From Ginglymostoma cirratum (lineage: Eukaryota), in contig JAHRHZ010000133.1 in assembly GCA_024137785.1 (NCBI GenBank), forward strand, positions 24,306,158 through 24,370,157: a stretch of 64,000 nucleotides of DNA, read 5' to 3'. This document shows, one piece after another, positions 1,131 through 56,600 of the stretch (position 1 is the first letter of the stretch; every line of letters begins with the position of its first letter). A program made the translations under genes and the position numbers. The notes under the pieces are model-generated. The model was not told the origin of the DNA. It ran no database searches and saw only the letters and a program-made list of their open reading frames with translations.

Positions 1131-1343
1131 TTATTGGGCAACTTGACTAACTCACAATGTTAATAGTAGTGCACACAAATTGTTATTATTTGTAAGGACA
1201 TTGGGATGGTTCGATGGAAGTTGCACTGATGTGTTTCCTGGCTTGTCTTAGTTATTTGACTCTGCCAGAGGCACTCACTGCAGGCAGATATGTTACACAG
1301 TTAAGTGTACTTAAGAGTGCTAATTACTGACACAGTAAAGCTA

Positions 1344-1439
1344 GTTTTGAGGAAGAGTCACTGGACTCAAAATGTGAACTCTGATTTTTCTTCACAGATG
1401 CTGCCAGAACTGCTGAGCTTTTCCAGCAATTCCTGTTTT
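1344..1439 (+). mobile_element. Short Penelope-like pseudo-LTR insertion with decayed hammerhead motif and 16-bp TSD
   Basis: Perfect direct repeat TGACACAGTAAAGCTA at 1328-1343 and 1440-1455. Internal AGTT-TTGAGGA-A-GAGTC(ACTG)GACTC-AAAA-TGTG-AACT followed by CACAGATGCTGCCAGAACTGCTGAG. Confidence 0.75.
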
Positions 1440-1489
1440 TGACACAGTAAAGCTACACTGTTGTCCTGTTGCTCATCACAAAGATAAAG

Positions 1490-2510
1490 TACTTGTCGGC
1501 CACTGTGGGGCCAATGGCATAATAGGATAAAAGGAGATGCAGCAAAAGGACTAGCAGAGTTAAGAACTAAATTAAAACTTACAACTCATGGTTGGTCATC
1601 TCTAGGTAAGTACCCCCCATGTGATCCACCAATTAGCACAGGAATAGGCAAGTCAGGAATATAAGTATGTGTTTGAAAAATTTGTGTGGGAAGGAGAGGC
1701 TCCATTTCATGGCACACAGATACCAATACTGGGAAATTAAGTAGAAACACCTCTAGGACAACCTTCACCCGAACTGGAGCAGGACCAGCATCCTAGCAGA
1801 AAGAATAAGTATGCTGTGCACAGGAGTTTAAACTAACAAGATGGATGAAGGATTTGGTGAAAATAATCCAAGCCTAAGATGAAAGAAATAGATGAAAATT
1901 ACAGTCATATCAAGGTAACGAATAAGGGTAATACAAATGGACAGAAAATAAATACACCAAAAGAACATCAGTATAAAACTACTGCTCAAATAAAGTGAGT
2001 GCAACATTTTTTTTAAGAAGTTAATAATGCACAGTATCCAAAATACATGGTGGCAAACTGGGGGTAATACATCTGCTGCCTCACTAAAAAGTATTAGGGT
2101 TTACTGAAACATACTGACATAAAGAATATGACTGGTAGTTAAGTGTTGCAGGAGTTAACAGAAATGATACAGAAAAAAGATGGAACTGGAGGGAGTAACA
2201 TAGTTCAAAAAATACAGACAACGTTATGTTAAAATTAACACGAACATAGCAAACATTAAAATCACAACAGTATCCATATGGGTTAAAGGATAAGAAGAAA
2301 TCAGTCATTACAGTGGAAGCAAAATGAAGTATAAACATATCTAAGGAAGTTATTTCTAAACATTTACTAACAATAATGGGAGATTTCAACTATTCCAAAT
2401 AACCTGCCTAGTAGGGAAAGGCAAAAACTGAATGGAATTTGTAAAAAAAAGTGTGTCAGAATTCCTTTCCTATCAAACTTGTTAGAAACATAACAAGAGA
2501 GCAATAATGT
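1490..2510 (+). mobile_element. Old CR1-clade LINE 5' region (ORF1 SGNH-esterase and endonuclease remnants)
   Basis: Degenerate H-vG-aN-(d)I..ELRTKLK esterase motif (~1500-1576) and IMGDFNY endonuclease motif (~2373-2393). Homologous to 7405-9200. Confidence 0.6.
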
Positions 2511-2512
2511 GA

Positions 2513-2570
2513 TGTTCTGATGTCTGGGTCACTGGACTTGAAATGCTAACTCTGTTTCTCTCTCATCAAA
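2513..2570 (+). mobile_element. Truncated Penelope-like pseudo-LTR/hammerhead remnant
   Basis: TGTT-CTGATG..GGGTC(ACTG)GACTT-GAAA-TGCT-AACT-CTGTTTCTCTCTC, same family as 1344-1439. Confidence 0.6.
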
Positions 2571-5500
2571 AAATTCTCATCTCCTGTTTAATTCATACAT
2601 GTATAAGTAGTTCACGTCTTGGGAGATAAAGGGCTCCTTGCCACTTACCTGGCTTAGAAAGACTATGGACCTAGACTCCAGAACACATTCTGGCCTATAT
2701 TTCAACAACTGATTTTTGAGCAACACAAGTGAGGGAAGAACATAGAACCTGGAAGGCTTCCTTTCGCTTCTTGCTGGTTTCTCTCACCATATTGGAAAAA
2801 CAACTTGGGAAAACAACCAACCATTCACTGAGACTCAGAGATATCTACCGATCTGGTAACTGCTGAAGATAAGCATCTACAATTAATCAACTGCGGCCTC
2901 AAGTTTTAAATTTAATTCTTCAAATATTTGAAGTATTTCTAAACTGTGAAACCTTATTTCTCTTTATCTATACCAAGCACTCTTCCTTTAAATTTATAAC
3001 CTGTGTTTATGTGTGTTTGAGGCCACATTTTTATAATTTTTTTCTTGAGGTTAGTATATAATATTATTCTCTTTCTTTCACTCAAGACAACTTTGGTAAT
3101 TGGCATTTTAGTAGAAGAGTGAGAACTGTATGCAAAAAAAAAATGTGTAGCTCCTTACCAAGAGGGGGCATAAAAAGAGGGAACTTGATTCTCCCTTCTC
3201 ATAGCAATAAAGATAGCTATTATTCTATAGATAAATTACTAACAAATGACGTATCAATATAGATACTGGGCTATTAAGAAAGTGGAAGCTAAACCTAGAG
3301 GTCATGACATCATGGTAGACTGTAACTTTGTTTTAGTATTTATCAGGGACGTTATCATGAAACTGGGAGAGATTAAAATATATATGAAGACACTTAGTAA
3401 AGAGAGTAAATTTTAAAGATTGCTAATGCACTAAACTTGGAGGTATGGTAACTAGCAAGGAAAACCTCCTTTTGTGATTTAAGCATATAATGTTCTGACT
3501 TAGATAAGATTGCAACTCTGATCACTAATTCACAACTGAGACAGATTATGGCATTTACAAATACAGGAAAATATGCTTCATAGAAACAGGAATTGTTAAA
3601 TAAAACAAAGACCAAGATCCCCATTTGGTTCACTTCCTGCTGAAAGCAATGCCAAATTCCATGCTCTGATCTCTCTGATGTAGATATTTGTATTTCTATT
3701 CAGTTTTGCATTAATGTAATAGCCAACAGAAGTTTTCAAAACAATGATATGCACACGAGCACCTTGGCATTCTTCGTCAATCAACATATGTTGGACTGGA
3801 AGCTGGAAATCTGCATCTGAGAAGCTCCTTTAAATCTCAATTAAAAACGAAGATCTGTTGTGATAAAATAATACTTATGTTACATGGCTTTATAACTTTT
3901 TGATGGGTGTAGATTAGATATGTCTTAATGGCTTGCTAGTTGTTGGAATATAAATCAAACTATTTCCTTTGAAAGCCAAGGAAGTGCATTCTTGAACTGT
4001 GCCAGACATAGTATTGCCAACTGGCATCTGTGCGGTAGTTGTGTGAAGATAAGGGCTGAAGTGTCTCAAATTAAATTAGCCATCAATGTGACATGTCTTA
4101 CATACTTGCAGGAATTGAGTTTATACATAAAATGTTTCTGAGTCACATTTTTAATTAGTCTGCTTTTAAGATGTTGTAGACCAAATTAACACCTCAATTG
4201 GTGTCTGAAATGCAAATGATGGTTTGTGTGTTTGCTTATGACCTTCTGGGGGGAAGGAAAAAAACCTGTTTATTATTGATTCTTTTCAAAGTTGCAGCTG
4301 CAATTTGAAACAAAAAGTACATTCCCCACAAAAGGCATAAAAATGTAGCCTTGCAGTATATGTCTGACGTGCTTACCATTCTCCAGCAGTTAACGTTATG
4401 AACCTCAAACCGAGATTAAATCACACACTCTCAATTTTAAATAGATTTCCACATGCTAGGTGACCTCTGTAACCAAATTAAAATGCTAAGATGTGTAAAT
4501 TTAGGGGGAAAAAAATGCAAAAAACCCATAAAACTAAACAGCTGCAGATTTAATGAGATGTATGGGGAGTAGGGAAGTAGAAGCAAATAAAACAGACTAT
4601 ACAACTATCCTGAAACACTGCAAAGTTTTATGTTAATCTTGACATAAACAGAAAGAGAGAAAATCATACATTTCAAGCAATGTGGAGAAGATGCTTGGAG
4701 CTGGCCACTTTCATGCTGTCAACTGGATTTGGACACTATAACGTCATGGAATGAGAAGCTTTTTCCCACCTCCAGCCTGAGTTACAAACTGGTGTATCAC
4801 TTCACATAAAAATAACTCACGAGTCTTCCTCATAATTTGCATTCGTTTTTATTTTGTTTCCAGCTGCCTTAGCAACTTATTCATTCCTGTAGAAATTAGT
4901 TATGATTGTTAGTCAATTAAGAAGGTGTTACTTTAAACAAAACATAAGCATTTTTGACTATGATGGATTATTTACTTGATCATTGCTTGCCGGCCACAGA
5001 AGATACAGACTTCATTGGTAAATGCATGTAAGTTGTTCCTATGGGACTAAGGATGTTTAAGTAAGCTAATGATTATGAAGAGTGCAGAGTCTTTACCCTG
5101 TTTTATCCATACAAGTATCCTAATAGTAGCTTGAATTAGCGTAACTCCCTGCAATGGTCAGGTGTTATGTGTTTTTTCTTGACAAATAAATGGTTCCCCA
5201 AGAATTGATCAAGACATTCAATTGAGATGTTCAATGTCTTGGATGTCTTGGGGATCATGTAATAGGTTTAACTGACAGTTATACCCAAAATGCAAAAAAA
5301 ATAGGAATTAGAATGAAGGGTAGGGGCCTGATTATTTGTAATTCATTGGATGGAATACACCTTAGTCAACAGCATGCAATTTTGGGGTATTTTTGCATGT
5401 TCTGACCTGACCATTTAGTCTAAAGTCAGCAGCGATGAAGAGTTAGTCAGAGACTTCTGTGCTATTGTACAACTTAAGGAGCCATGGTTCAATGATCAGT

Positions 5501-6189: not shown

Positions 6190-7400
6190 GATAAAAGAAC
6201 TTATATCAGGGTATCTGGATAAAAGTTCAGGGTCATGAGGCAAAGGCAATATGATTTTGTGAAAGCAAAATCATGTTTGAACAATCTATTGAAGTTCTTT
6301 GTTGAAACAACTGATACTTGGATGAAGGGAATTGATGAATGCACTATATTTGTATGTATGGGATCATATAATGGTATAGATAGAGGATTAGTGAACGGGA
6401 AGTAGACAATTGGCATAAATGTGTCTTTTCAGGCTAAGAAGAGCAACAGGAGGTGTGCCACTGGGATCTCAATTATTTATCATTTTCATAAATGACTTAG
6501 ATGAAGGGACAGGAGGTGTGGTTGCTAAACTTACTGGCAGCACAAAGATGGCTAGGAATGTAAATTGTGAAAAGGACCTGGGGGAATATATAAAAAAAAA
6601 ATAGATTAGGTGAGTAAAAAGTTGTGGAAAATGGAATATAGTGAGGGGAAAGGTAAAATTGTCTATTTTAGCAGGAAGAATAAAAAAGAAGCATGTTGCA
6701 GAGATTGCAAAATTGTTAGATACAAAGAAATCAAGAGGCCCTCATGCATGAATTATAAAGGGTGAATATGCAGGCACAGCAAGTAATTAGGAAAAGTAAT
6801 AGAATGTTATTTTCTATTGCAAGGTGAAATTAATACAAATGTATGAGGTATTGCTTTAGTTACGAGACTACATCTGGGGTACTGACCATAGCATTGGTCA
6901 CATTTTTTAAGGAAAGATGTAACTGTGCTAGAGGCGGTTCAGAGAAGGTTTATCAGGCTCACACCTGGAACGAGACTGTCACATGAAGAAAGGTTGACAG
7001 GCTAGGCTTGTAACTGCTGGAGTTTAGAAGAGTAAATAGTGACTGGATTGAACCATGCAAGATCCTGAAGAATTTTCACAGGGTAGGTATGGAGCGGGTG
7101 TTTCCTCTTATGGGAGAATCTAGAACTAGGGGTCACAGTTTAAAAATCAGTGGTCACCCATTTAAAACCGAGACTTTTCTTTCAAAGTGTCATGAATTTT
7201 TGGGACTCATTTCTTGAAATGGTGGTTGAAGCAGAATCCTTGACTGCATTTCAAGCAGAAGTAGACAGATTTCCTGTTAAGCATGGGGGTGAAAAGTTAT
7301 CAGGATTAGGTGGGAATACGGATATAAGGTTACAATAATATCAGCCACGATCTTATCGAATAGCAAAGCGGGCTGCATAGCTTACTCCCGTACCAGGTAT
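6190..7400 (+). mobile_element. CR1/HER1-type LINE, degraded RT and 3' end
   Basis: GVPLGSQLFIIFINDLDEG (ORF 6419), VQRRFIRL, SRTRGHSLKI and FFQSVMNFWDS motifs, then a typical CR1 3' UTR. Confidence 0.9.
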
Positions 7401-7404
7401 TCCT

Positions 7405-23970: not shown

Positions 23971-26771
23971 TAACAGAAGTCTATTCTGTTTTGAATGCTT
24001 GCAGAAGAACACATTTGTAAAAGGTTAAATAGAAAAAGAAATCTACGTTCGCCATAGCTGACTTGACAGCAAAGTTCTCCAGGGGCAGGTTACATAATTA
24101 TACCCAAGTTGAATAATTTTTCTCATTCTGTCGAGATTGGTGTGAGTCATTCTGCCGCCAAAATTGAAGGCACACAAAGTACAATACATTTATTATCTGA
24201 AGGTTTGTAGATGCTTTCGAAAATCTCAATGTAGTGAGACAAGTAGTAAGTACGATGTTAATATGTGGACATTAATAGCCAGATTCATACGATGATAATT
24301 ATGTGTTTGTGTGAGTTTCAAATTATCCCTGTACATCTAATATGAAAAAACCCACATATATAAAACCGAAACCTCACACATAAGCAGGTTTAAATAACAG
24401 TTGAAGTGATTTGTCAAAGAGACAGCAAATACACAAGAGATTTATAACACTAAAGCTGTTAATATTTTAAGTTTCAGTACAAAAGGTGCAAATCAAGATT
24501 AGGCTATTGATTTATTCTAAACAGGAGTTGAGAGAGGAATAAAAAAGGGGAAAGGTCAGCAAATTAACACTGTACTCATTGTTCCCACTTTCAAAGTTCT
24601 ATCAAATGTTACTTTTTTTTCCTGGACTGGGAACTTATCGGGTTTTGTTTTAAAGACGATCAGCTATAAGCTCTAGATCAAGACAATTGGGTTTTATTTA
24701 CTTGGGACTATTTTTTTGTAAAGTTCACATTATAGCAAAGTAGCACTTGTGCTGCACCAAATTGTTCAATTGTTAAAAATGCACCAAAGCAGCTTCACAA
24801 TCTAAAATCTACTTGTCCAAGAGAAGGTTCTAGATAAAGAAACTTTAGTTCTAAATCAGCTGAACAGATGTTTAAAACACCGAAACAGTGAATGCAAAAA
24901 TTCAGACTAGAGGGATGGCGGGTGGTTGGAAGAATATCATTAAATTGAGCTTTTAGAAAAGGAATCTCAGTCAAGGTAAACCAACACCACTCTGGAGAAA
25001 CAGAAGGTGAAAACATAAGCGAAAAATAAATTTAATGAACAACGCAAATGCGCAAAATATATTTCAAGTGCATTTCAAATAGCCAAATGCATGCAATCCC
25101 TGATCATGTACACACACAAAGACCATACGCATAAACAGGAGTAGTAATTGAAAAAGATCCTCTGTATTTCCATACATTTTTTTAGAAACTAGCAAACTAA
25201 CACCTGCAATGCAATTCCAGTGTACAAGCAATTGTAATTGAATCCAGCTCTTGCAAATAGTTCAAAAGAAGTTTCTATGGTAACCAACATGCACAGTAAT
25301 AAAGTCTGAAGAAAATACCATTACCCTTTCAATTGCCTGAAAACTGTAAAAGGTCTAAGAAAACAAGCATTTTCTCCGATCAGCTGAGCAAAAATCATTC
25401 ACACGATACTTTGGCTCAAGATACTCACTCATTCCTTTGAACACTTACACATTTTCCACAGAATTCCACAATTCCCACTGGCCTAAAAGACAGGCTCTTT
25501 AAATGTTCATCTAAAACAGCATTTTCAGTGTTTAATTCTCAGGTTACCTCCAACCCTTTTATTTCAAAATGAATGCTTCTAATTTTCCACATTAGATCTT
25601 TAATACTATATTGTACATTTGACAATAATGTAGCACAACTGTTACAACTTCAAGTGCAGTCTAATATGGCATTTCATGGTCATTGATATTTTGCCATCAG
25701 TATCAAGATCACTGCTTTTAAAATTCCAAATGATTAAAAAAACGCTAACTGTGCCAGCAGCATTTTAACTTCACTTCCAATCAAAGACTGCTGAGTAAAG
25801 CTCTTTCCATGTATTTGATGTATCGGATTTCTGATTTTCCTGACTTGAGCAGTGCTTGTGTGTGGTGTAACTAATTACCCACTTCTACTGTTGGCAAAAA
25901 AAAATGCTCATTTATGGGTCTACACAATATCTGTGAAATAAAAGTTTAAAGAATGTTTATAGCTGTCTTACATTCAGCAAAATCTTCCACAATCATCCAA
26001 AATGTGCACTGCAAACTGAAACAGTCTTGTGATTTGGCAAGAGATTTTCACCAGTTCTGTTGGCAAGAGTGCAGAATCAATTACGTGTTCAGTAGGCGTA
26101 AAACATAGGTACCTAGATATAACAGCAGTTTCAATCCTTGGATTCTTGTTGAATGCCATTATGTCTTTTAACATTCATTCACTCATTTAACAATCGAAAC
26201 AAAATCTTACCGGCAAATCATTATTTGTCATATTTTAAAGTGTAATTGGCTCACTTTAAACAATAGTCTTTACATTCATTGACCTTTTCCCTGTCAAATT
26301 TTGAGTTTGAACATGGCCTAGATGAATGAGATTAAAAGCTTTCCTCGACAGCTGTTTAAGTGAAATGGGTTTCAACAGTCTAAACCTAGATCCCAATGGA
26401 TTACAGTGCACAGCATAAAACTCCCCATAATAAATAGACACAGCTATAATTGGATGCTCTCCCTCACGGGAAGCCACAAGGATTAGCCAGTACGAGAAGT
26501 AACAAGCTGGTGTACTTGCAGTAATATACAGAGGCTGGGATTATGTCAAGTTGTATGGAAATTCAAAAGGAATGGAACTGCTTTAAAGGAAAGCAAAGGG
26601 AGAAACAAAGATATTCTTCACCCTGAGCATGTGTTTTTCCCCTAAAACATTACTAAATTAAAACAACTATATTAACATGCAATGCAAAACTGAACACTAT
26701 TTTTTGTGTTACGCTTTCAGGAATAAAATACAGCTTCAATTTTTTTAAAAAAAAAGGTAAATCAATGGATA

Positions 26772-26970
26772 AGAGATAAAAAGGTACTGCAGATGCTGGA
26801 GAATCCGAGATAACAAGCATGGGGCTGGATGAACACAGCAGGTCAAGCAGCATCATAGGAGCAGGAAAACTTGACGTTTCGGGCCTAAACCCTTCATCAG
26901 AAATGTGATGAAGGGTTTAGGCCCGAAACGTCAAGTTTTCCTGCTCCTATGATGCTGCTTGACCTGCTGT
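26772..26970. mobile_element. Young fold-back Penelope-like element with hammerhead motif and 15-bp TSD
   Basis: TSD GTAAATCAATGGATA at 26757-26771 and 26971-26985. Perfect 67-bp inverted repeat 26833-26899 / 26906-26972 (last 2 nt overlap the TSD) with a 6-nt loop. Confidence 0.9.
26869..26904 (-). ncRNA. Minimal type-I hammerhead ribozyme motif (variant with extra A)
   Basis: Minus strand reads AUUU-CUGAUGA-A-GGGU(UUAG)GCCC-GAAAC-GUC-AAGU: conserved core, stem II, palindromic ACGU stem III, GUC triplet, stem I AUUU/AAGU. Activity not testable here. Confidence 0.7.
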
Positions 26971-27879
26971 GTAAATCAATGGATAGTTACCCCAAAGCCG
27001 CAAAGGAATGGTATACCATCACTGATTGTGCTTCCATTTGAGGATAACACCTACACAGGGTCACAAGATTCTACTACGGCCTTGGTCCCTACAAACCTGA
27101 CCCTAGGAAAACTGGCCTGGGAGGTTGGAGTTTCCTTCCAGGTGAGGTATTCCTTGGTGGCAGGCTGGGCAACATGAGAACGGAGCTGCTGGCTGGAGAC
27201 ACAAGCCGGATGCTAGACTGGCCTCTATGGACAAGCACTGTATTGAAGTTTAATTTTTAAAAAATGAATCTAAAAACATCTCTTTGGTCCTCAACCGTAC
27301 AAATTTCCTCTCTTCTCTTTAGACTCTCCCTGGCAAATGCATATTACCTCTAGCTCCATGTGAAGTCTAGACTACCTTCCGACTTGTCCCATGAAAATGG
27401 GAAAAGATGCATTTGGGAGTGAGACTACTGATTTTCAGGGATTTGTGGCATTTTTGCCCATGGCATAGACCCCTCCTATTGCTGCAAAAATCTGGGTGTT
27501 TGGGCTTTCAAGTGAGGTCCGGGCCGATTCTTAACTCTAGGATCTTTGAAAATGGGGCAGGACTTCTCATTTGATAGGGATATCTGGAGAGCAAACTTTG
27601 CTTCCTTTCCTTCTACTCCTCCGTCTCATTTTTCAAGACATCAGGGGTTGAAAATTATGGAGGATGGCTGCTTGGTGCAGTCTAAAATCTCAGTCAGGGA
27701 CGAAAAGTCAGCCCATAAGAAATAATGTCCTTTTAACGGGGAGGAACTCTCATTCTCTGGAGCTGCAAGCCAATCTGATTGACTGGCAGTTCTAAAAGGT
27801 TCCAGCAGTGCCAGAGATTAGTAACAGGCATTGTCAGCATTGCAGGAAGGTCCACAGGGCAGGCATCCATGGAGACTCA

Positions 27880-35950: not shown

Positions 35951-38560
35951 AGGGCTGAATGTTCCTATTTTCAGTTGATGTATTTTGCAGAATGAGATTT
36001 GTGCCAACCTATCCACCAAGGATCCGGGAAACTTTTTCTTGGGAAATCTTCCACTCCTCACTTCATTAATATTGTTACGGGTTGGTTCCTCCTCAAGCAA
36101 TCGAGACGCAGGAGAGAAGGAAATGTTTGCCAATGCTATCATATCTCAAGCCCAGCTGTTCACCACTTCAGGTGCTGCAAACCAGGATCTGGCCATCATG
36201 CTGTGACACTTGACCAATATCACTGAGAGAATGCTCCAGAAAGGCAAGTTAGTTGCATGCTCTTCAAACAGTGACCTGGGAGGTGCAGGTGGACAGGGAA
36301 TTGGTAAAGGAGGGCAGTTCTGTTTCCAGTAGACTGCTGAGGAGGCCAAGCTACCAGACTCAGGCAGCCTGGGCACAGAGAGGGGCATAAAGTAATGCAT
36401 AGCAGTGCCATGACAGAAGGTCTTCTGTGCGTCACAAGGGTACACGCGACCATCTTCTCTCTGCTACCTCATGCTCACAGGGCCACCACTTCCTCTAAGT
36501 CTGCAACTGATATAATCCTCACCAAGACTCAAGGACAACAACTCTCTCTATTACATGCACCACAACTACCTACTCATGCATCTACTCCCCTACAGTCTTT
36601 CCTGGTCTCTCTGCTTCCAACTCATGCAGTGGGGCACCTCACCACCTATCCTGCTCCTCATTACCACTAATCATTCTTCCATTGAACTCAATATATCATT
36701 TTGTCTCGCTGTAGGAAACACTGGTCCACACCAGGCTCAATGGACAAAGACAGGCTCAGGATGGTGGATCCAGTAAGTTTCATTGTGCTCTCTCATTAAC
36801 ACTAACTCTAATTCATTTCGAGTACAGGAGCAGAGATGTGTTGTTGCAGTTGTACAGGGCCTTGGTGAGACCACACCTGGAATATTGTGTGCAGCTTTGG
36901 TCTCTTCTTCTGAGGAAGGATGCTCTTGCTCTCAAGGGAGTGCAGCAAAGGTTTACCAGGCTGAATCCAGGGATAGTGGGTCTAATGTATGAGGACAGAT
37001 TGACGAGGTTGGGATTGTTTTCACTGAAGTTCAGACAAAATGAGGGGAGATCTCATAGAGACTTATAAAATTCTAACAGGACTGGACAGGATAGATGCAG
37101 GGAGGATGTTCCCAATGGTGGGTGTGTCCAGAACCAGGGGTCACAGTATAAGGATTTGGGTAGACGATTTAGGATGGAGATGAGGAGACGTTTCTTCACC
37201 CAAAGAGTGGTGAGCCTGTGGAATTCATTACCATGGGAAGTAGTTGATGCGAAAACATTGAATGCATTCAAGAGGCAACTAGATATAGCACTTGGGATGA
37301 ATGGGGTCAAAGGCTATGGGGAGAATGCAGGATTAGACTACTGAGTTTGAACCATGATCATGAAAAATGGCAGAGCAGGCTTGAAGGGCTGAATGGCCTC
37401 CTCCTGCTGCAATCTTCTGCATTTCTAGGTATCCAATCTGAACAGGTTTTTTACCCTCTTACACAACTAAATCCAACTCTTCTCTTATACAGGAACAACC
37501 CAGCGATCCATCACCCTGAAGAGGCCTGTGCCAGAGACCCTTGGCTCCAACTCCACCTCTGAGGAAGAAGCCCCTGAACCCTCGGGGATGCACTGCAAGA
37601 TTTTCACCTACACCCCATACCAGCTCAGAGGCTGTCTCCTCTGTGGGCTCTTTGTTCAGAACAGACCCAAAAGCATTGTCTGATGAGTATTTCAGCAACA
37701 TGCTTCTGCAGCTGGTTGACAAAAAAATAGCCGGAGTCTCTTGAACCCAGAGATCGGCTGGTCACCAGGTAGCTTCTCAGGCAGAAGACGATTCCATGGT
37801 GTCAATCCTCGAGAACCATCAAATTTCACAGAAAGACTCAGGAACATCAGGTGGGTTTGTCAGAGGCAGTCACTAAACTGGATCAAGAGAGTCCACTGAC
37901 CTTATCAGTACCATGCTGGGTCCCACATGTGTGTGTCTAGCTGCCTCCATGGAGGGCTGACTATGGACATGGAGATCCAGGTACAGTGCACTCTGTGTCT
38001 ACTAGATTTGTGCATGGATCTGCGTTTGTCAGAGGGGATCAGCATCCGTACCAAGAGAGAGTGAGGAGAAAAGGGGACTTTGATTCCACTCCAGGTGCCT
38101 GTTCCTCTCAGGGAGTCGGGGTGGTGCCAACTCACACCCACAGGCAGCAGCAGCCACGCACAGGCCCACCAAGTTCCTCCCAGGAGAAGTGAAGACCCAC
38201 CCCCTACACCCCTACCCTTCTCCTGTGCCTTTGATCACAAAGCCTGCAGAACTCCAAGTCGAGGGAGGTAAACTTGTATCTGGGCAAGACAACAGACACT
38301 GGCACTGAGCCGAAATGGCACCACGGATGAATGCCCAAGCCTCCCAGGCCAACGGAGCCAATGACAGAGATGGCTTCCCCCACCGGAGCTATGGCAGTCA
38401 GGACTACATTTCATTGAAGTTGGAGGGAGAAGAAGGGGGCACATAGGTGAGGTCAGATAGGCAGCACGGACAACTTATAAAACTGTAAATAACCATGTAC
38501 ATATATCTCATTGGTACTCCTCAAAAGACTGCAGTGTTATTTTTATCGTCAGACCTGGTT
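35951..38560 (+). mobile_element. Harbinger-type element carrying a spliced Myb/SANT-like accessory gene relic
   Basis: Starts with TIR-like GGGCTGAAT (same as 38707). Exon-1-like S.SDL..VD...RRAVLFP..QTQAAW (~36260-36375). AG-preceded exon 2 ending in TKTGSG (~36715-36775). 37935-37984 is homologous to 40137-40187. Confidence 0.6.
36817..37430 (+). mobile_element. CR1/HER1-type LINE 3' end nested in the Harbinger element
   Basis: LLQLYRALVRPHLEYCVQLWS..VQQRFTRL and RRRFFTQRVVSLWNSLP, followed by the 3' UTR GGCAGAGCAGGCTTGAAGGGCTGAATGGCCTCCTCCTGCT. Confidence 0.93.
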
Positions 38561-40726: not shown

Positions 40727-40830
40727 AGAGTTCCAAAGAGGAATCGAGCCGGACTTAATGTTAATTCTGTTTCTCTCTCTCCACAGATGCTGTTAGACCT
40801 GCTGAGTTTCTCCAGCACTTTGTTTTTATA
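40727..40830 (+). mobile_element. Decayed Penelope-like pseudo-LTR fragment inserted in the Harbinger element
   Basis: AGTTCCAAAGAGG..GGACTTAATGTTAATTCTGTTTCTCTCTCTCCACAGATGCTGTTAGACCTGCTGAGTTTCTCCAGCAC. Confidence 0.65.
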
Positions 40831-46490: not shown

Positions 46491-47799
46491 TGCTTATCAA
46501 TGACCCTACGTACCTGAAATGGAAAAAATCTACCATTTTCCAGTTACCACCTGAAATGTTATACCACAAATTAAAATTGTACACCAAAAACCATCATTTT
46601 ACTATCATACAGTCACAAAATCAAAATGTGTAAATTAACTCATTGAAAATTTAATAAGTTAGAACAAAATAAATTGATTCAAATCTCTCTGTATCACACT
46701 GCAGTCATTTTGACACCCTATGCACAATTAGGTTCATAAACGTCTGATAATTTGGATAAAACAGCTTCAAAAGTGATGTTTCTCAGCTTCTATAGTTGAA
46801 GTTGAATATCAAGAGTCCAGCACGTGCAAAATAAAACCCTTTCAAGTAATCACAGGGTCCAGATTAAGATGTACACACAAAGAGTGAAATTGTATGATAA
46901 GGTTTAATAGGCACCATAAATAAGCAAACAGATTACAACTTGTAGAAAGCATTCCTTCACAATTCCTCATTTTCTCCTATCATTCAGCAACTCTTACTTC
47001 AAAAATGTGACAACTGCAGCCCAACCTTAGTATGGTTGGTTCTCCTTTCTGCTATTACTTCAGTCCTTGTGACTTATATGCCTAGCTCCTATACCTGCTT
47101 CTCATATAAATTTCAATCTCAATAAGGATTATTGTTGCTGCTTTCCTTCCACAAATACTGCATTTTGTGAAACTTGTATCCTGTACTTTAGTCTCATACA
47201 CCTGGATTCCAATTGAGTTATTTCCTTCCCTGTACACAAAAATAATTGATAAAGTGGATGAATTAATTTCCTCATTAAAATTCTATTTGATCATAACTTT
47301 GCTGCTAACTTGTGCATTAATTATATTTAATAGCATGCATTTAAAATTAAGGCCTTCTTTTGCACAAATAAGCATAAATTAATACAAAGGGCAAACAAGT
47401 CATTATAATTGGGGAACAGTAATTTTTAAAATAATGCTTGAATTCATTGTCAGTGAACAATGTCACAGGGTTTTCTAAAATAAATTATTTTTAAAAATCT
47501 GCGTAGGAATAAAACATTATGTTCTTCATACACAGTGGAATTTATGCTTTCACTGTGATAGGGTTTCTGCAAAAAATCTGTGCTTACAGTTATGTGTTGT
47601 ACTGAGTAAATCCTAGGATACATAGTATATCAGCACAGGTATCTTCAGGCTTGGCACTGGACCGTCAAGCAGACTGTGGAAATGTAAGTGAAAACTGTGT
47701 AAACTCAGAAATGATTTTATGTTCCATAAATTTGTTTTACTTAATAGCTGGTACACATGTGGCCACATCCTCCCTTGCTTCAGGCCAGTATATGTATGC

Positions 47800-48755
47800 C
47801 TATGACCAGCGGTATGCCATAAGGATTGGCGCTGGGTCCACCACTGTTTGTCATCTATATAAATGATCTGGATGTGAATATAGGAGATATTTTTAGTAAA
47901 TCTGCAGATAACACCAAAATTGGTGGTGCAGTGGACAGCGAAGAAGGTTATCTTAGAGTACAACGGGACATTGATCAGATGGGAAAATGGGCCCAGGAGA
48001 GGCAGATGGAGTTTAATTTAGATAAAAGTGAGGTGCTGCATTTTGGTAAGGCAAATCAGAGCAGGACTTATACACTTAATGGTAGGTTCCTGCACCTTAG
48101 AGTGCAGGCTCATAGCTCCTTGAAAGTGGAGTCACAAGTAAACAGGGTAGTGAAGGTGGCATCTGGTATGCTTGCCTTTATTGGTCAGTGCACTCAGTAT
48201 AGGAGCTGGAAGGTCATGTTGTGGCTGTACAGATCTCTGGTTAGGCCGCATTTGGAATACTGTGTTCAATTCTGGTCTCCCTGCTATAGGAAAGATATTG
48301 TGAAACTTGAATGGGTTCAGAAAAGATGTATAAGGATGTTCCCAGGGTTGACGGGTTTGAGCTATAGGGAGAGGCTGAATAGGCTGGAGCTATTTTACCT
48401 GGAGCGTCGGAGGCTGGAGGATGACCTTATAGAGGTTTATAAAATCATGAGGGGCACGGATTGGGTGAATAGCCAAGGTCTTTTCCCCAGGGTGGGGGAG
48501 TCCAAAACTAGAGGACATAGGTTCAAAGTGAGAGGAGAAAGATTTAAAAGGGGCCTAAGGGGCAACATTTTCACGCAAAGGGTGGTACAAGTATGGAATG
48601 AGCTGCCAGAGAAGGCCTGGATGGTTATATGAATAAGGAGGGTTTACAGGGATAGCCAAATGCTGGTAAATGGGGGACTAGGTTAATTAAGGCCATCTGG
48701 ATGGCATGGCCGAGTTGGACCAAAGGGCCTGTTTCATGCTGTATATCTCTATAGC
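47800..48755 (+). mobile_element. 5'-truncated CR1/HER1-type LINE with 268-aa open ORF2 remnant
   Basis: ORF 47826-48632 LGPPLFVIYINDLD..SKSADNTK (FADDTK mutated)..LYRSLVRPHLEYCVQFWSP..TRGHRFKV..FTQRVVQVWNELP. Tail GTTGGACCAAAGGGCCTGTTTC is shared with the HE1 SINE. Confidence 0.95.
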
Positions 48756-48883: not shown

Positions 48884-49248
48884 CATCTCTGCCTATGTGA
48901 AGTAAGTATTTTTTAACCAACCTGTTCAGAGAGTTATGAAACACCTCTGGAGCAGGTGGGACTCACTGAATTACTTGGATTCTTGTGGCTGCTTTTCTTT
49001 AACCTTCATTTACCTGGGCATGAACAATTATGTAGAGTCCTCATGCTTTATGTGCCTTATTTCCACCTACATACCAAGTTAGAAAACTATTATCAGATAG
49101 CCAGTTTAACAGATATGATGACTATACAATCAACTTTTTTATGGAAGTTAACACTTTGATGCATGTTACATCATTTTGGAGTCTATCATTTTGCTTTGCA
49201 AAAACAAGATTACTGAATTTGTAGATCATAGTACTGTCATGTGTGGAG

Positions 49249-49680
49249 ACACTAAGGACTACAGATGCTGGAAGCTACAGTCAATAGATGTGAAGCTGGA
49301 AACACACAGCAGGTCAGACTGTATCCAAAGAGCAGGAAAGCCGATGTTTCGGGCCAAAACCCTTTGTCAGGACTGGGGAGGGGGAGGGGAGCCCAGAAGT
49401 AAATAGAGTGAGGGTTTGAGGCTGGGGTAAGTGTAGGTGGGATGGTGATAGGTGGATGCATGTAGGTCTCAGTGTAAAGGAGACAACCAGGGTTGTAGTG
49501 GGAGAGGGACTCACTGAGCCCTCTTCAGAGGGAGGAGGAAAACTTCTTCAAGGTGGGTATCTTTAGAAGACACTTCACAGTGTTGTTTATCAATGACTTA
49601 GATTCTTCAAAACATTGACTTTCCTGCTGCTCAGATACTGTCTGACCTGCTGTGCTTACCCAGCCTCACATCTACTGACA
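49249..49680. mobile_element. Older fold-back Penelope-like element with inverted pseudo-LTRs and internal fragment
   Basis: Left arm 49280-49350 is inverted relative to 49608-49679. Minus-strand hammerhead-like AGUC-CUGACAA-A-GGGUU(UU)GGCCC-GAAAC-AUC-GGCU at 49339-49374. Internal GAGGAGGAAAACTTCTTCAAGGTGGGTATC block shared with 56435-56495. Confidence 0.78.
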
Positions 49681-51572
49681 TTGTGCTGTGTGGAATTTGT
49701 TCACCAACTAACTGTGCATCTCAGAGTTGGTATTGCCTGAAACTTTCTCATTCAGGGTTAGAATCCACCCATACTGAATAGAGTGGGATTTTCCATTATA
49801 CAAATTATGGGATAGAGTGATAGACTCTGAGATTTTCAGCAAGACACAAGCTGTTAAATTGTGACTATTGTGGGGTATTTTTAAGCTTTTAAGTTGCCTC
49901 TCAGGGGCTGAAATGGACAGACTTCATTGCTCTGATCATTTTTTTAAACCAGCTGCAGGCAGTAGTGTATCGCTGGATTTTAGATCCTAATTTATGACAG
50001 CCTTTGAAATCACTGCCACGTACTCCAGATTATACAAAGCAAATGTCATGGAGACAGCAATAATTGAACACTTTATCCTAATTAGAAAAGGCATCCCTTC
50101 ATGCAGTTTATACCCATTTTCACATGACAACTTTACATGATCATTGATATCACTGCTACATCCATCAAGAAATGGTAAGTTAAAGCACATTTTTGATGAC
50201 TGCCACAGTCTAAAACCAACGGTGAAAATCATACTGTTGTGGTTTTTCTTCTGAGTCTTCCCCTTAGTAGCCATCAAGTGAGTCCATTTTCCTTCACTGA
50301 TTCCTATGGTTCTACAAGGCAATCCAATTCCTTGTATAGAAAATGCATTTTGGGAAAATGTTGTGAAAATTATTATATCAGACAATCTCACTACGTCATC
50401 AGCAGAACAAACAAATGTAAGCTATTTATGATAGAAAGTACGTGACAGAGAAGACTTCAATGTGTAGATAAAGAGTTCCAATAAAAGCATTTGGTTAGTA
50501 ATTCCAGTCACAAAAATCTGAAGACCTGTACTTAAATTTTATGATTGCTTTTAGATTTTGCTGTTAGTTCTACTAATCTCATTAATCTAACTTAATTTGG
50601 AAGTAGAACATTCCATTTGTCATCTGCCATGGAATGACCTTTTTGTTTGATATGCGTGTAAAAGGTGAACAGATGTATTAATAAAACTTGCTCAAGCTAC
50701 TCAACAGAGCTAAATAAATATATAACGTAGCTAATAAGAAATCTAGGTGAATTATCACGGTCAGTTTCCTTCACCCCTTTGCTTACACACTACTCGGAGG
50801 TAACAACTAACACAGAATATATACATCTTGAATGAATGTTTTCACTGAGATGTTAAGCTTTTGTTAACTATGCTGTTCCAACATGCAGTATTTTTGTCCT
50901 ATATAACCCTGTCACCTGCTTAAATCAAGGTTTTGCTTTGGTGGATAAAAGCAATGCTCTTCAATCTCCTAAAGTATTAATGGGAAGCTACTGGCTACGC
51001 ACAGATGAAAACAAATAAATAAAAATCCTGGTTATTCTGTATTAGATCGAAGCAAAAGCACCTAAAGCAAAAGAAAAATAAAATTGATTTCATTCAAAAA
51101 GCACTGGTAAGGTGAGTCCAAAATAAGATTAAAAACAAAGAATTGATTCAAACATTGTCTTTAAGTTTTATTTGATGTGCAGGATCGGAACCTTTTTAAA
51201 TTGATTTTAAATCCATCTGTTGTCAAAATGGTTTACTGCGTGCACAGTACGCTTACTGAATAGCGTTTCAGACAGAGTCAGTTTAGGTCTATGGAATCAT
51301 GTTTCGATTAGAATTCAAAACAAAATAACTTTCTTTGGAAATGAAAGCCTTCGCAAAATAGGTGAAATTTATCAATGTGCATCTGTGAATCATGCGCATA
51401 CTAGAGACAAAATATTCCAGAATGCTTAATATTAAACTTATACAAAATGACTGAACAATATGCAAATAACACTACACACACAATGTAATACTGCTGAAGA
51501 AATTACAACTCACCTGTGACAAATGTACAAATAGATTTCAGCAAGATTGCAGAATGACATACCAACAATGTT

Positions 51573-51778
51573 GACAAACAGGAGGCTGGAAGAACACAGC
51601 AAGCCAAGCAGCATATGGAGGAAAGGAGCAATCAATGTCTCAGGTATAATAATTGTTCGGTGGATTATTCTCAAAACACTGGCTGCTCTTTTCCTCCAGA
51701 TGCTGCCTGGCTTGCTGTGTTCTTCCAGCCTCTTGTTTGTCTACCTTGGATTCCAGAATCTGCAGCATTTTTGCCTCT
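51573..51778. mobile_element. Fold-back Penelope-like element with 14-bp TSD (1 mismatch)
   Basis: TSD ATACCAACAATGTT 51559-51572 / ATACCAGCAATGTT 51779-51792. Inverted arms GACAAACAGGAGGCTGGAAGAACACAGCAAGCCAAGCAGCAT / ATGCTGCCTGGCTTGCTGTGTTCTTCCAGCCTCTTGTTTGTC. Confidence 0.85.
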
Positions 51779-52311: not shown

Positions 52312-52633
52312 GGGTGGCACAGTGGCTCAGTGGTTAGCACTGCTGCCTCACAGCAGCAGGAACCCAGGTTCAATTCCACCCTCAGGCAACTGTCTGTGTG
52401 GAGTTTGCACATTTTCCCTGTGCCTGTGTGGGTTTCTCCAGGTGCTCCAGTTTCCTCCCACAGTCCAAAGATGTGCAGGCTAGATGGATTGGTCGAACTA
52501 AATTACCCATAGTGTTCAGGGATATATAGATTAGGTGGGTTATCAGTGGATTTGTCTGGGTGGGATGCTCTGAGGGTTGGTGTGGACTTGTTGGACCAAA
52601 GGGCCTGTTTCCACACTGTAGGGATTCTATGAT
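52312..52633 (+). mobile_element. HE1-type V-SINE (elasmobranch)
   Basis: tRNA head GGGTGGCACAGTGGCTCAGTGGTTAGCACTGCTGCCTCACAGC..GGTTCAATTCC, V-domain TGTGTGGAGTTTGCACATT..CCAGTTTCCTCCCACAGTCCAAAGATGTGC, and HER1-like tail ending GATTCTATGAT. Confidence 0.92.
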
Positions 52634-53338
52634 CTACAAAAGGTCCATGGTACTCAACTTTACACACATTGTGCACTATATGATTGCACATGCAATATTA
52701 TGTTTAAGTTCCTTGTTCAACTGCTTTCTACAGCAGGCACAATAAATCCACAGCTATTGAATAATGAAGCAATCACTGGAAATGAAAACTGATATGTGTA
52801 AATAATTGTAGAAAACATCCTATCAATACTATCACATAATTAGTGCTCTATTGGTCCAATTTCAGATAACAACTCTCATACCTTTGGACAACCTAAAAGC
52901 AAATTCAATTAAACAAATACAGGACTTGATAAGTTAACACTGAATATCTAAGATGGGGATACGATTGGTGCCTGTTATCTGTCACAATGCCACAATTCAT
53001 TTGCACTTAATTACAAGGTAACATTTTCATTCATGGTATTTGAAAGATAATGCAGTTCAATTGAGAGAAGATTCTCAACACTTAAAATGATAATTTTGGT
53101 ATAATACTGAAAGTTCATTGCAAATTGCAGCAAATCCATCTGAATTGCTTGCTGAGAAAGTCACTTCTTACACATTGCCAAAGAAAGACTGAAAATTGAA
53201 GCTTTTCCTGTCTTGCACTCATCAGAATTGAAATGCAAGACACATATTTGAAAAAGAGAGACCCCATTTTATGCAAAATGAGAAGAAGGCCTCAGAGATA
53301 AAAGGTACTGCAGATGCTGGAGAATCCGAGATAACAAG

Positions 53339-53738
53339 NNNNNNNNNNNNNNNNNNNNNNNNNNNNNNNNNNNNNNNNNNNNNNNNNNNNNNNNNNNNNN
53401 NNNNNNNNNNNNNNNNNNNNNNNNNNNNNNNNNNNNNNNNNNNNNNNNNNNNNNNNNNNNNNNNNNNNNNNNNNNNNNNNNNNNNNNNNNNNNNNNNNNN
53501 NNNNNNNNNNNNNNNNNNNNNNNNNNNNNNNNNNNNNNNNNNNNNNNNNNNNNNNNNNNNNNNNNNNNNNNNNNNNNNNNNNNNNNNNNNNNNNNNNNNN
53601 NNNNNNNNNNNNNNNNNNNNNNNNNNNNNNNNNNNNNNNNNNNNNNNNNNNNNNNNNNNNNNNNNNNNNNNNNNNNNNNNNNNNNNNNNNNNNNNNNNNN
53701 NNNNNNNNNNNNNNNNNNNNNNNNNNNNNNNNNNNNNN
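53339..53738. other. Assembly gap (N run)
   Basis: Run of N. Confidence 1.
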
Positions 53739-53740
53739 GA

Positions 53741-53776
53741 TTTTCTGATGAAGGGTTTAGGCCCGAAACGTCAAGT
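53741..53776 (+). ncRNA. Minimal type-I hammerhead ribozyme motif
   Basis: CUGAUGA (53745-53751)-A-GGGU(UUAG)GCCC-GAAA (53765-53768)-C-GUC. Predicted cleavage after 53772. Confidence 0.68.
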
Positions 53777-54717
53777 TTTCCTGCTCCTATGATGCTGCTT
53801 GACCTGCTGTGTTCATCCAGCCCCATGCTTGTTATCTCTGAGAAGAAGGCCTGACTGGTTGAGCCATCTCATTGGCATGGAGATATAGTAAGAAGAGTTA
53901 ATCATCAATCTTAATTCTCTGAGTAGGCAGACAGGTTCTGATTGGTCATAGCATTGCCATTGGAATGCAACAATATTTGGCAGTCTCCATGACGCTTTTT
54001 GTAAAAGTGCAATGTATGTACAAATTCCTTTTGCTTACACAAAACAGGATCCTAAGCACTCATTATGGAGCTTTTACCACATGCAAATTCATCACACTAA
54101 GGACACAGGGGATGATCTTGAATTGGTTTTCAATGTATCTCTTAGTACAGTTTGGATTATTAAATAACTAGTTTCCAACAGCAGAATCATATCTAAATGT
54201 GGATACATTTTCCTGAAGCTTGCAAGCATGGGGTGGTTGAGCACGAGCAGGCTGCTGCTACCTGTGAATGGTCATTGAGCCATGTTGTTTAATACAGTCT
54301 GTAGTTGCTGGGAAATACAGACTACATGCCTGGAGCCCATACCACACCACTTATTTGTGTGGCAGGCAGGGATTCTTTTTGGCATGGTAGCTAGTGGATA
54401 AAACTACTTATGAATTTACTGCGAAATAGAAGCTTGAGACAGCTAGCTTTTTGAGACACCTTCCACTTCTAGAGTAATTTGAGGTAGACAGACATTGAGA
54501 TAAGATTGAAGTTGAGATTGAACTATCCATATGATAATGGATACGCCGATCAAATTATCACTCCTTGTATATCATGAAAACTCATGAAAGGGTCTACATC
54601 CACCACTTTTAGCCATGACTAGTGTCCGGCCTACCTCAGATCTACTGATCTGGCCTAAGAATTAGGATTGACAGATAACCATTCTGCTGCATTTCATGCC
54701 AATGGTGGCCCATCAAA

Positions 54718-55700
54718 TCAAACTGGAGGCCTGTGACCAGCAGTGTGCCACAAGGATCAGTGCTGGGTCCACTGCTTTTTGTCATTTATATAAATGATTT
54801 GGATGTGAATATAGGAATCATAGTTAGTAATTTTGCAGCTGACATCAAAATAGGTAGTGTAGTGGACAGTAAAGAAGTTTATCACAGAGCACAATGAGAC
54901 CTTGGGCCAATGGGCCAAGGAATGGCAGATGGAGTTCAATTTAGTTAAATGTGAGGTGCTGCATTTTGGTAAGGCAAACCAGGGCAGAACTTACACAATT
55001 AATGGTAAGGCCCTGGGGAATGTGGTCAAACAAAGAGACATAGGGTTGGGGATGCATTGTTCCTTGAGAGTGGAGTCACAGGTAGATAAGACACACTTGC
55101 CTTCATTGGTCAGAACATTGAGAATTGGGACACCATGTTGCAAGTGTACAGGACATTGATGAGGCCACTTTTAGAATACTGTGTACAATGCTGGTTGTCT
55201 TTCTATAGGAAGGATGTTATTAAACCTGAGAGGTGCAGAAAAGATTTACAAGGATGTTGCCAGGACAGGAAGGTTTTTTTTATGGGGACATGCTGATTAG
55301 TCTGGTAATGTTTTCCCTGGTGTGTTGAAAGTTGAGGGGTGACCTGATAGAGGTTTATAAAATCATGAGGGGCATGGATAGGGTGCATAGCCAAACTCTT
55401 CTTTGTAGAATGGGGGAGTCCAAAAATCAAGGGCCTAGGTGTAAAGTGGGAGGGGATAGATTTTAAAAGGACCTGAGGGGTAACGTTTTCACACAGAATG
55501 TATGGAACGAACTATCAGAGGAAGTGGTGTAGGCAGATACAATTACAGCATTTAAAAGGCATCTGGATGGATACATGAATAGGAAGGGCTTAAAGGGATA
55601 TATGGGCCAAATGGGACTAGGTCAAGTTGGGCTGTCTGGTCGGTGCAGATGAGTTGGACCAAAGGGTCTGATTCCATGCAATACTACTCCATGACCCTAT
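54718..55700 (+). mobile_element. 5'-truncated CR1/HER1-type LINE
   Basis: VPQGSVLGPLLFVIYINDLD, WAKEWQMEFNLVKCEVLHFG and the HER1-like tail GAGTTGGACCAAAGGGTCTGATTCC. Same family as 47800-48755. Confidence 0.93.
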
Positions 55701-56336
55701 AAATCAACACTCTCCTCTCATTCTGTGTAAAATTATGTTGCTTTTTATAAGTCTGTTTTTTGCATCTTAGTTCTAATGAGTGCAAGATGAAAAGCGTCAA
55801 ATTCTAGTCTGCTTTTTGTGATGGCTAAAGTCCGTAATGTTACTTCTAATTGTAATAGTCACTGGTGAAAATCAATCTTTTATAGACAAAGCAAAAGCAA
55901 TGCCATAGCATAACACTGCATCACTTCTATTACAGATATGAATTGAAAAGTGTAGAAATGATGTTAAAGTATATTATTTTAACTCAATTCATCTTTGATT
56001 AGATTAAAAAGTTAATCTACAATTACCAACTAATGACATACAACAACTTAGGGATAGCAAACAGAAATCTGATACTCTGTGGTTGACTGGCATACCATCT
56101 CTGTAAGAGAAACTTGTAATAATAACCTAGATGAAATATGTTCCAGGTTCAAGAATACGTCAAGAAATTCCAGGTACCAAACAAAACTTGATACCTGCTT
56201 TTTAAAAAATAAACTTCTCCAAAATAATGAATTTTGAAACACTCATCAAAACATAAAAGTGATTGGTAAGGGAGTCATCATTTATGAATGCTTGTTTCAC
56301 TATATGTTAACATATCATCACCTCTAAACATGTTCT

Positions 56337-56600
56337 AGAGATAGTAGGAACTGCAGATGCTGGAGAATCTGAGATAACAAGGTGTAGAGCTGGATGAACA
56401 CAGCAGGCCAAGCAGCATCAGAGGAGCAGGAAGGAGGAGGGTAACTTCTTCAGGGTAGGCATCCTTAGAAGAGGCTTCGCAGTGGGGTTAAAATTATTTC
56501 ATTTCTGAAGAAGGGTCTAGGCCCGAAACGTCAGCCTTCCTGCTCCTCTGATGCTGCTTGGCCTGCTGTGTTCATCCAGCTCTACACCTTGTTATTTCAA
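56337..56600. mobile_element. Fold-back Penelope-like element with hammerhead motif
   Basis: Near-perfect 64-bp inverted arms 56371-56434 / 56535-56598. CUGAAGA-A-GGGU(CUAG)GCCC-GAAAC-GUC at 56505-56532. ATGTTCT flanks both sides (56330-56336, 56606-56612). Confidence 0.88.

Follow-up and report, generated by a model that had tools for sequence, protein, structure and literature searches.

Hammerhead copies in the window

The window, that is, the whole stretch of 64,000 nucleotides of Ginglymostoma cirratum DNA that was analysed, carries scattered short copies of a hammerhead motif. Judged by sequence, these are copies of the minimal type-I hammerhead (min-HHR) of the pseudo-LTRs (pLTRs) of Penelope-like elements (PLEs), known from Cervera and de la Pena (2014; PMC4209133). 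The PLE core, CUGANGA ... GAAA ... UH, is intact in three of them. By eye we recognised no PLE open reading frame of at least 90 aa in the window, and Rfam covariance models gave no hammerhead family among 12 matches at E ≤ 10. The miRNA matches that Rfam did return are inverted pLTR pairs, not miRNAs; an old pair at 51574..51765, with no recognisable hammerhead left, is the source of one such spurious match.

Family B is represented by a solo pLTR copy with a short tail at 1343..1441 (plus strand; 85% identity to the family-B reference), whose first base is that of stem I and which has a target duplication of 16 nt (1328-1343 / 1440-1455). Its min-HHR (1343-1380, plus strand) has decayed through four core changes, C3>T, G12>A, C15.2>T and H17=G. 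A B-like remnant at 2514..2563 (plus strand), reading CTGATGTCT, has a broken core without the extra A and without NUH, and no downstream pLTR follows it. A further family-B pLTR remnant, without a core, lies at 40757..40827 (plus strand; 87.5% identity).

The remaining copies described here belong to family A. A young inverted pair at 26772..26972 is enclosed by a 15 nt target duplication (26757-26771 / 26971-26985). Its minus-strand arm (26772..26905; long tail, 99% to the A1 reference) begins 5 nt before C3 and contains an intact min-HHR at 26869-26904, and its plus-strand partner (26906..26972; short 3′ end) begins at U4 of the core, retaining GAAAC-NUH but neither C3 nor the 5′ side of stem I. 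At 53292..53338 the long-tail end of a young minus-strand arm runs into N; the young plus-strand arm at 53742..53838 (99% identity, short tail) has an intact min-HHR (core from 53745) and a 14 nt target duplication (53279-53292 / 53839-53852). Two arms of subfamily A2 follow: a minus-strand arm with a long tail at 56337..56432 (99% identity), beginning 3-5 nt past the cleavage site, and a plus-strand arm with a short tail at 56499..56599 (98% identity), whose core is intact (from 56505) and whose stem I has only 2 bp. Before the former, in permuted order, lies a piece of 5′ UTR and ORF start (56429..56501, minus strand; 96% to the 5′ part of the near-full-length element L340). The intact copies at 53745 and 56505 are on the same strand, 2,760 nt apart.

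An older family-A insertion consists of a minus-strand arm with a piece of 3′ UTR and a long tail (49246..49414; 74% identity), a 5′ UTR and ORF-start piece (49489..49582, minus strand; 79% to the 5′ part of L340) and an inverted partner arm (49619..49670, plus strand; 79% identity). Its min-HHR (49339-49374, minus strand) has decayed at G8>A and G16.2>A (49370, minus strand). A tail-only remnant lies at 60036..60093 (plus strand; 88% identity). We rejected non-LTR retrozymes, which are head-to-tail tandem units, as an identity for these copies, since same-strand copies in the window lie kilobases apart. They resemble the retrozymes of Li et al. (2026, preprint 10.64898/2026.07.22.740005) in that short non-coding units derived from PLEs carry a type-I hammerhead; retrozymes, however, form head-to-tail arrays, whereas the window copies occur singly or head-to-head and have target duplications.

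An earlier note on this DNA had described a covarying hammerhead layout in several divergent families. The motifs are real, and the stem I pairs (AGUU/AACU, GUU/AAC, AUUU/AAGU, AGUC/GGCU) and stem II pairs (GAGUC/GACUC, GGGUC/GACUU, GGGU/GCCC) that it quoted are present at the coordinates given; in six copies of the window an A separates CUGANGA from stem II (1354, 26893 minus, 26912, 49363 minus, 53752 and 56512). The GAAAC-NUH part is complete at 26900 (minus), 53745 (plus) and 56505 (plus); the copies at 1343, 2514 and 49370 (minus) depart from it. The cited copies belong to two families only, A (26869, 49339, 56505) and B (1343, 2514), whose downstream sequences are homologous. GAGUC/GACUC and GGGUC/GACUU turned out to be variants of one family with the majority GGGUC/GACCC, and most of the covariation seen among the cited copies is not distinguishable from decay. 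An A-U pair at 10.2, for example, occurs in 2 of 70 B copies, with ∼0.6 expected under independent decay (expectation by hand). The suggested CpG decay was borne out: among tail-anchored family-B copies, G12 is changed in 29/83, and the CG at 15.2/16.2 in 54 of 179 letters.

The motif in its elements and across the genome

Family A lies about 260 nt downstream of an ORF with a Neptune-type reverse transcriptase (RT), a CX4CX2C linker and a GIY-YIG endonuclease. In L157:4801-6915 this is a single 705-aa frame, with RVT_1 (30.5 bits) followed by a C-terminal GIY-YIG domain (24 bits), both above Pfam cut-offs, and with the hammerhead 259 nt past the stop. The hammerhead also stands at the very start of the near-full-length elements L316 and L340; the likely ATG of family A is about 165 nt past C3. 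Domain order and the linker motif (CX2-5CxxC type, between RT and endonuclease) thus suggest that family A is a Neptune-type PLE, as does the likeness to Neptune-clade elements, which have the same C-terminal GIY-YIG and linker and leave inverted 5′-truncated copies whose 30-40 bp tail is often confined to one end (Craig et al., 2021; PMC8557442). Direct or inverted pLTRs with an optional tail of 30-40 nt and a target duplication were likewise found for family A. Family C frames lack the linker, as in Poseidon, the PLE of the anole. Families A, B and C all sit behind GIY-YIG frames, as expected of a PLE pLTR; for families D and F we found no ORF link.

Genome-wide counts were made with exact patterns instead of a DNA similarity search; a 100-nt copy used as a genome query gave no match because very common words are skipped. 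Four disjoint exact patterns gave 86,745 matches, i.e. at least 86,000 exact core matches, in keeping with the high abundance that the earlier note had suspected, and we extrapolate to a total of ∼190,000 intact cores. Family F, with an AGCU palindrome, gave 2,689 matches (control 13). Run on unselected DNA (564,052 unmasked bases), a family-blind descriptor of the layout matched 52 times against once for the reversed control, far above chance, and 48 of the 52 matches had a single extra nucleotide. The extra nucleotide is A in families A, B, D and F and U in family C; a G directly after CUGANGA gave just 887 matches (control 108), most of those listed being A>G mutants.

The stems and the 4-nt palindrome vary between families while pairing is kept. 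In five families all 35 tested pairs can still form (shuffle mean 19.4), a number reached by none of 20,000 shuffles in a test that ignores relatedness; in 12 subfamilies 80/84 can. Helix III swaps its palindrome between families, ACGU in A-D and AGCU in F, without a loop 3, and G10.1-C11.1 is G-C in 12/12 subfamily majorities, several patterns having required it. Within families compensation is rare: one-sided changes numbered 45, 49, 37 and 80 in A1, A2, A3 and B, and re-pairing double changes 0, 0, 2 and 7. The earlier note had also proposed setting the core against its flanks. The core, CUGANGA ... GAAA ... UH, is invariant across the 12 subfamily majorities, which is partly built into the patterns, and by eye families C and F have no evident downstream sequence in common with A and B. 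Sequence comparison of this kind supports the earlier note's proposal that RNA structure was under selection in the source elements; the five window copies that the note relied on do not show it.

Single-copy folding gave no significant z-score (0.54 to -1.46), as expected because the motifs are so small, and a hammerhead-like fold was the clear MFE in none of six real copies evaluated (B ties; A1, -3.4 vs -9.3 kcal/mol). Stem I has only 2 bp in the abundant A2 and A3 subfamilies.

The literature already has the motif, the extra nucleotide and the covariation. CUGANGAH is the published PLE min-HHR consensus (PMC4209133, supplement), and the extra nucleotide, which the earlier note took for a new non-canonical variant, is one of four published hallmarks (PMC4209133). 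The copies further resemble those of Cervera and de la Pena (2014) in G10.1-C11.1, the missing loop 3, the palindromic 15.2-16.2, a short helix I, many covarying families per genome and opposite-strand pairs 100-700 bp apart. They differ in the shorter helix II of family A (4 bp) and in number, 86,745 exceeding the 4,000 of coelacanth and 9,000 of Xenopus, counted with different descriptors. Cartilaginous fish terms were not found in the supplement file of that paper that was searched, and insertion ends, mapped here, are not mapped in the parts of it consulted. Lunse et al. (2016), on small PLE hammerheads, may already cover such variants and counts. A record of insertion ends was not found in print.

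Ends of the insertions

In unselected DNA, 5′ ends fell within the 10 nt before the core in 39 of 102 copies (family A, 23/60; B/D, 16/42 before C3) and at the cleavage site (-2 to +3) in one (A, 1/60; B/D, 0/42). The larger set gave 77 of 256 A copies before the core against 6 at the cleavage site, and 37 of 84 B copies against 3. No peak of copies at the cleavage site was detected in family A (∼1.2 per position, ∼0.9 beside it). A cleaved and re-ligated circle would leave that site unmarked in DNA. A TATA-like box precedes the A that starts stem I by 29-31 nt in families A, B and D, and the truncation point ∼30 nt past such a box distinguishes these copies from the described Neptune-clade elements. 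In family C the box is displaced upstream by 15 nt; 46 of 51 long copies have it at -46 to -48.

The 3′ ends use two sites 30-40 nt apart, at +62-70 and +97-100. Each of the 31 young inverted pairs flanked by a target duplication of at least 8 nt combines one long and one short tail, again beyond what is described for Neptune-clade elements; target duplications are mostly 13-16 nt. Once the element's own C is excluded, the base before the stem I A is G in 60/100 A and 48/100 B junctions (25% expected; hand counts, P = 3e-13 and 9e-7), an excess that is confounded, as several junctions fit re-priming on the core CUG and the partner arm or the duplication supplied the template for some Gs.

In poly(A), unstranded RNA reads (run X23), 59,012 of 12,895,792 reads fell on the 1.9-kb element end, equally on both strands, without a pile-up of read ends; run X24 had 30 and 8 reads on element sequences. 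Read joints at the proposed start (7170-7171; 526-527) are transcribed genomic junctions and hence not evidence of promoter use.

Proposed origin of the copies

We estimate at roughly 60% the probability that the short copies are mostly run-off cDNAs of uncleaved RNA starting at stem I, the hammerhead being predicted to cleave only as a dimer. The TATA-like box in the upstream 3′ UTR would yield a capped transcript beginning at stem I. In the anole, a PLE protein cuts and extends both DNA strands, two internal RT start sites set the tail, and the substrate is mainly unprocessed RNA (Frangieh et al., 2024; PMC11167929). By analogy with that Poseidon protein, the element protein would cut both strands ∼14 nt apart, and reverse transcription would be primed from both DNA ends at two internal RNA sites, giving head-to-head arms and a target duplication. 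The 5′ pile-up and the one-long-one-short pairs fit such two-ended priming on uncleaved RNA from stem I. Helix III would form from two hammerheads pairing through ACGU (or AGCU); because two must pair, cutting would be occasional and unneeded for insertion. Once inserted, copies would decay neutrally. As in Poseidon_Ac (PMC11167929), two 3′ end sites lie ∼65-100 nt past the hammerhead, RNA-seq ends are absent from the cleavage site and the template would be uncleaved RNA; the anole ORF, however, begins at stem II, compared with ∼165 nt past C3 in family A, which moreover has the Neptune linker. Against a start at stem I, truncated family C ends are split (of 19, six at -15 to -20 as predicted, seven at -3 to -9 and six further up), most truncated family F ends fall 1-3 nt before the core, closer to it than expected from the family's TATA box, both arms extend beyond the proposed start in 5 of the 31 pairs, and 50 of 256 A copies begin inside the core.

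In the model of Cervera and de la Pena (2014), hammerheads act as a dimer to cut a tandem transcript, and the resulting unit RNA, ligated into circles, serves as template. This would account for the palindrome and core kept in every family, its seamless ligation junction would escape notice in DNA, and the window insertion 56337-56501 can be read as a permuted single turn beginning 3-5 nt past the cleavage site. We nevertheless consider it unlikely: a circle has no 5′ end and so leaves the pile-up before stem I, which is also the start of full-length elements, unexplained, and that permuted copy is the sole one in 413 sequences, its joint a 2-nt microhomology and not a cleavage-site junction. 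It is rather improbable, too, that the pile-up reflects no transcription start at all, RT having been halted by the hammerhead fold or by the C-rich tract that follows, or antisense strands having primed themselves (Arkhipova et al., 2013), as PMC3846280 proposes for head-to-head palindromes. The seven of 19 truncated family-C copies that end at stem I, not 30 nt past the TATA-like box, would fit; the constant TATA spacing in A, B and D, the displaced box of family C with its second end cluster at -15 to -20, and the 94 of 256 A copies that read through the hammerhead do not, and the G excess and re-copied 5′ words at junctions fit a true template end. That the motif of the dominant family is no longer a ribozyme, kept as a protein-binding site or promoter sequence or by hitch-hiking, is very doubtful, even though A2/A3 amplified while stem I shrank to 2 bp, anole catalytic mutants insert normally in vitro (PMC11167929) and Naiads proliferate without hammerheads (PMC8557442), given that all catalytic positions, a free N7, an H17 that is never G, G10.1-C11.1 and the swapped palindrome are kept in 12/12 subfamily majorities of two PLE types (core letters partly required by the patterns).

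A speculative and rather unlikely extension of the reading with uncleaved RNA as the template is that the hammerhead forms the first 32 nt of a capped RNA, that its cutting is a dimer-triggered decapping off-switch and not a template-making step, and that each insertion is a two-ended reaction that has to use both priming sites once. If so, the ∼190,000 intact ACGU-sharing cores would make this vertebrate genome more densely loaded with ribozymes than any described so far, and same-strand neighbours in host pre-mRNAs, such as 53745/56505, could pair and cut host transcripts. For bench tests, families B, C and D offer better-folding ribozymes than the dominant family A. The value of this genome lies in sample size: it offers young insertions in tens of thousands, with ends that serve much as an in vivo assay would, and these bear on the role of PLE hammerheads and on the origin of the inverted pLTR with a one-sided tail. 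These ends suggest that the template is uncleaved and has a fixed 5′ end and that two priming sites are used as a pair, which goes beyond the one PLE protein studied in vitro.

Hammerheads in the window and their conservation

The motif is a genuine hammerhead feature of a kind already known. Its hallmarks (extra nucleotide, G10.1-C11.1, a palindrome and covarying families), with the consensus CUGANGAH, appear in the available text of Cervera and de la Pena (2014; PMC4209133), and the extra nucleotide was originally reported for a viroid hammerhead. Within the window (GC 38.6%, CpG observed/expected 0.23) we found the stem pairs quoted in the earlier note, and six copies carry the extra A. The shared layout that it described held at 26900 (−), 53745 (+) and 56505 (+), where the core is intact, but the 1343 and 49370 copies lack some catalytic bases; in the 2514 copy both the extra A and NUH are missing. 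What had been called several divergent families amounts, for the copies cited, to two related ones, A and B.

Most window insertions are inverted pairs of pseudo-LTRs (pLTRs) with 5′ ends facing each other, e.g. at 26772–26972, 51566–51748 and 56370–56599, and three insertions have exact target duplications (16, 15 and 14 nt). Inverted pLTRs, one-sided tails and TATA/Inr-like pLTR motifs are described in the accessible parts of PMC8557442 and PMC3846280. The intact cores at 53745 and 56505 lie on one strand with 2,760 nt between them.

Within families, changes were one-sided and CpG-driven, as expected of dead copies. At non-CpG core positions the rate of difference from the family reference was at most about half that seen downstream (A1, 0.6% versus 3.7%; B, 7.1% versus 13%; the downstream value includes subfamily differences). 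Between families, double changes preserve pairing, which bears out the proposed structural selection on the hammerhead: the first stem I pair is U-A, A-U or C-G, pair 10.2 is G-C, A-U or U-A, pair 10.4 is U-G, U-A, A-U or G-C, and 15.2/16.2 is CG or GC. Across five families (D represented by three copies), 35 of 35 pairs were kept, with a mean of 19.4 and no value as high among 20,000 shuffles, a shuffle that ignores relatedness. In subfamilies A2 and A3, however, stem I comprises just 2 contiguous bp, which counts against a tidy covariation picture.

A further hammerhead-like family, absent from the earlier note, occurs at 53194–53229 (−) and 55769–55802 (+). It has CUGANGA without the extra base, a stem II of ∼2 bp and a 6 nt palindrome, AAGCUU, as helix III; its 171 exact genome-wide matches (control, 0) are mostly CpG-decayed. 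The window also holds LINE 3′ pieces, which we take to be CR1/L2-like, at 36715–37344, 47793–48735, 54724–55698, 56841–57420 and 63670–63883; a 269-aa frame within one of them (47823–48632) had no Pfam match. Two inverted repeats, one of 144 nt (22631–22774/23641–23784; 94% alike, 866 nt between) and one of 81 nt that is not related to pLTRs (902–982/1038–1118; 80% alike), had no further copies among the fetched loci.

Abundance and parent elements

The suspected high abundance was confirmed by 86,745 exact matches in the 4.36 Gb genome, summed over four disjoint pattern sets: family A (71,944; control, 0), family B (8,590; control, 0), extra base C or U, mostly family C (3,522; control, 20), and family F with its AGCU palindrome (2,689; control, 13). 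In an unselected set, comprising the window and 80 stretches of 10 kb (564,052 of 864,000 bases unmasked), a family-blind descriptor gave 52 matches, 48 of them with one extra base, and one in reversed sequence. This set contained 136 pLTR fragments and 25 fully intact cores, which extrapolate to ∼190,000 genome-wide, a rough figure because masked stretches often adjoin pLTR copies; among the 25 there were five cases of neighbouring intact cores on the same strand within 5 kb. The listings and passages covered by our literature search contained no paper on shark hammerhead counts, and the sample for tandem retrozymes in the available text of Li et al. (2026; 10.64898/2026.07.22.740005) includes one chondrichthyan.

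Upstream of the family A hammerhead, an open frame encodes RT and GIY-YIG domains and a CX4CX2C linker, a kind of linker given as a mark of Neptune and Nematis in the part of Craig et al. (PMC8557442) available. Family B shares this linker; family C has GIY-YIG without it. A 190-aa query from the family A ORF returned 115,254 candidates, 150 of which were scored. Two near-full-length copies from elsewhere in the genome (L316 and L340) start at the hammerhead, followed in order by tail, short 5′ UTR and ORF. In four loci (L316, L323, L334 and L341, upstream of 1500) the family A ORF has a variable N-terminal Thr/Pro/Ala/Asp-rich repeat tract before the RT. Another locus combines Penelope-like element (PLE) copies with a BCR-like host gene exon (Bcr-Abl oligomerisation domain; L164:1796–3232, +) in the same 10 kb stretch. 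The exon marks the genome as that of a vertebrate, and the repeats suggest a cartilaginous fish. One element end accounted for 0.46% of poly(A) reads in RNA run X23.

Ends of inserted copies

Copies were located by their downstream part, with no core required, and for unselected DNA those of < 80% identity or adjoining N were dropped. Starts fell ≤ 10 nt before C3, the first core base, in 23/60 A and 16/42 B/D copies, versus 1/60 and 0/42 at the cleavage site. Over all loci, leaving out copies on which searches were centred, the counts were 77 versus 6 of 256 for A and 37 versus 3 of 84 for B. Counted from the cleavage site, three further near-full-length copies start at −27, −9 and −8, and no start is at +1. 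In the literature listings and passages covered, no paper related insertion ends to the cleavage site.

In families A, B and D, stem I opens with an A that lies 29–31 nt downstream of a TATA-like box; among 51 long family C copies, 46 have the box at −46 to −48. The truncated copies of family C (n = 19, after leaving out four full-length of 23 rows) have 5′ ends at −15 to −20 (six), −3 to −9 (seven) or further upstream (six). By hand count, G precedes the opening A in 60 (A) and 48 (B) of the first 100 listed matches (25% expected). Copying of a cap might underlie this excess, a reading that is suggestive only because partner arms, duplications and re-copying of 5′ words account for part of it. 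In L351, L354, L359 and L371 (around 1500) the element's first 7–15 bases are present twice at the 5′ junction, resembling reiterative synthesis at a template end.

The 3′ ends fall at two sites, +62–70 and +97–106. A target duplication of at least 8 nt accompanied 31 of the 45 young inverted pairs, and each of these 31 combined one long with one short arm. One arm (56337–56501, −), the sole permuted case among 413 sequences, has 5′ UTR and ORF start preceding a pLTR piece; its pieces sum to exactly one turn of the 165 nt unit, and the joint has 2 nt of microhomology.

A possible insertion mechanism

We propose that transcription of a tandem element would be driven by the TATA box within the 3′ UTR upstream, and that the RNA would begin at stem I. 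The protein encoded by the element would cut both DNA strands and use both DNA ends as primers, at two internal sites of the RNA; arms begun in the 5′ pLTR would run off the capped end after 100–135 nt, and those primed in the 3′ pLTR would extend into the ORF, with random truncation. This agrees with the anole protein in the available account (PMC11167929), which in vitro extended both strands from two internal starts and used unprocessed RNA. By comparison, the D. virilis promoter is internal and TATA-less, as far as the accessible text of PMC2377424 goes.

Linear cut RNA gave rise to at most a few percent of copies. Alternatively, the template may be a ligated circle. Cleavage is predicted only for hammerhead dimers, which would pair via a 4 nt palindrome, and the anole protein assists cleavage by its element's own hammerhead in vitro (PMC11167929, available part). 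In read-through RNA, the inverted pairs would fold as long near-perfect hairpins, possible substrates of ADAR or Dicer. The map of insertion ends provides a testable mechanistic lead.
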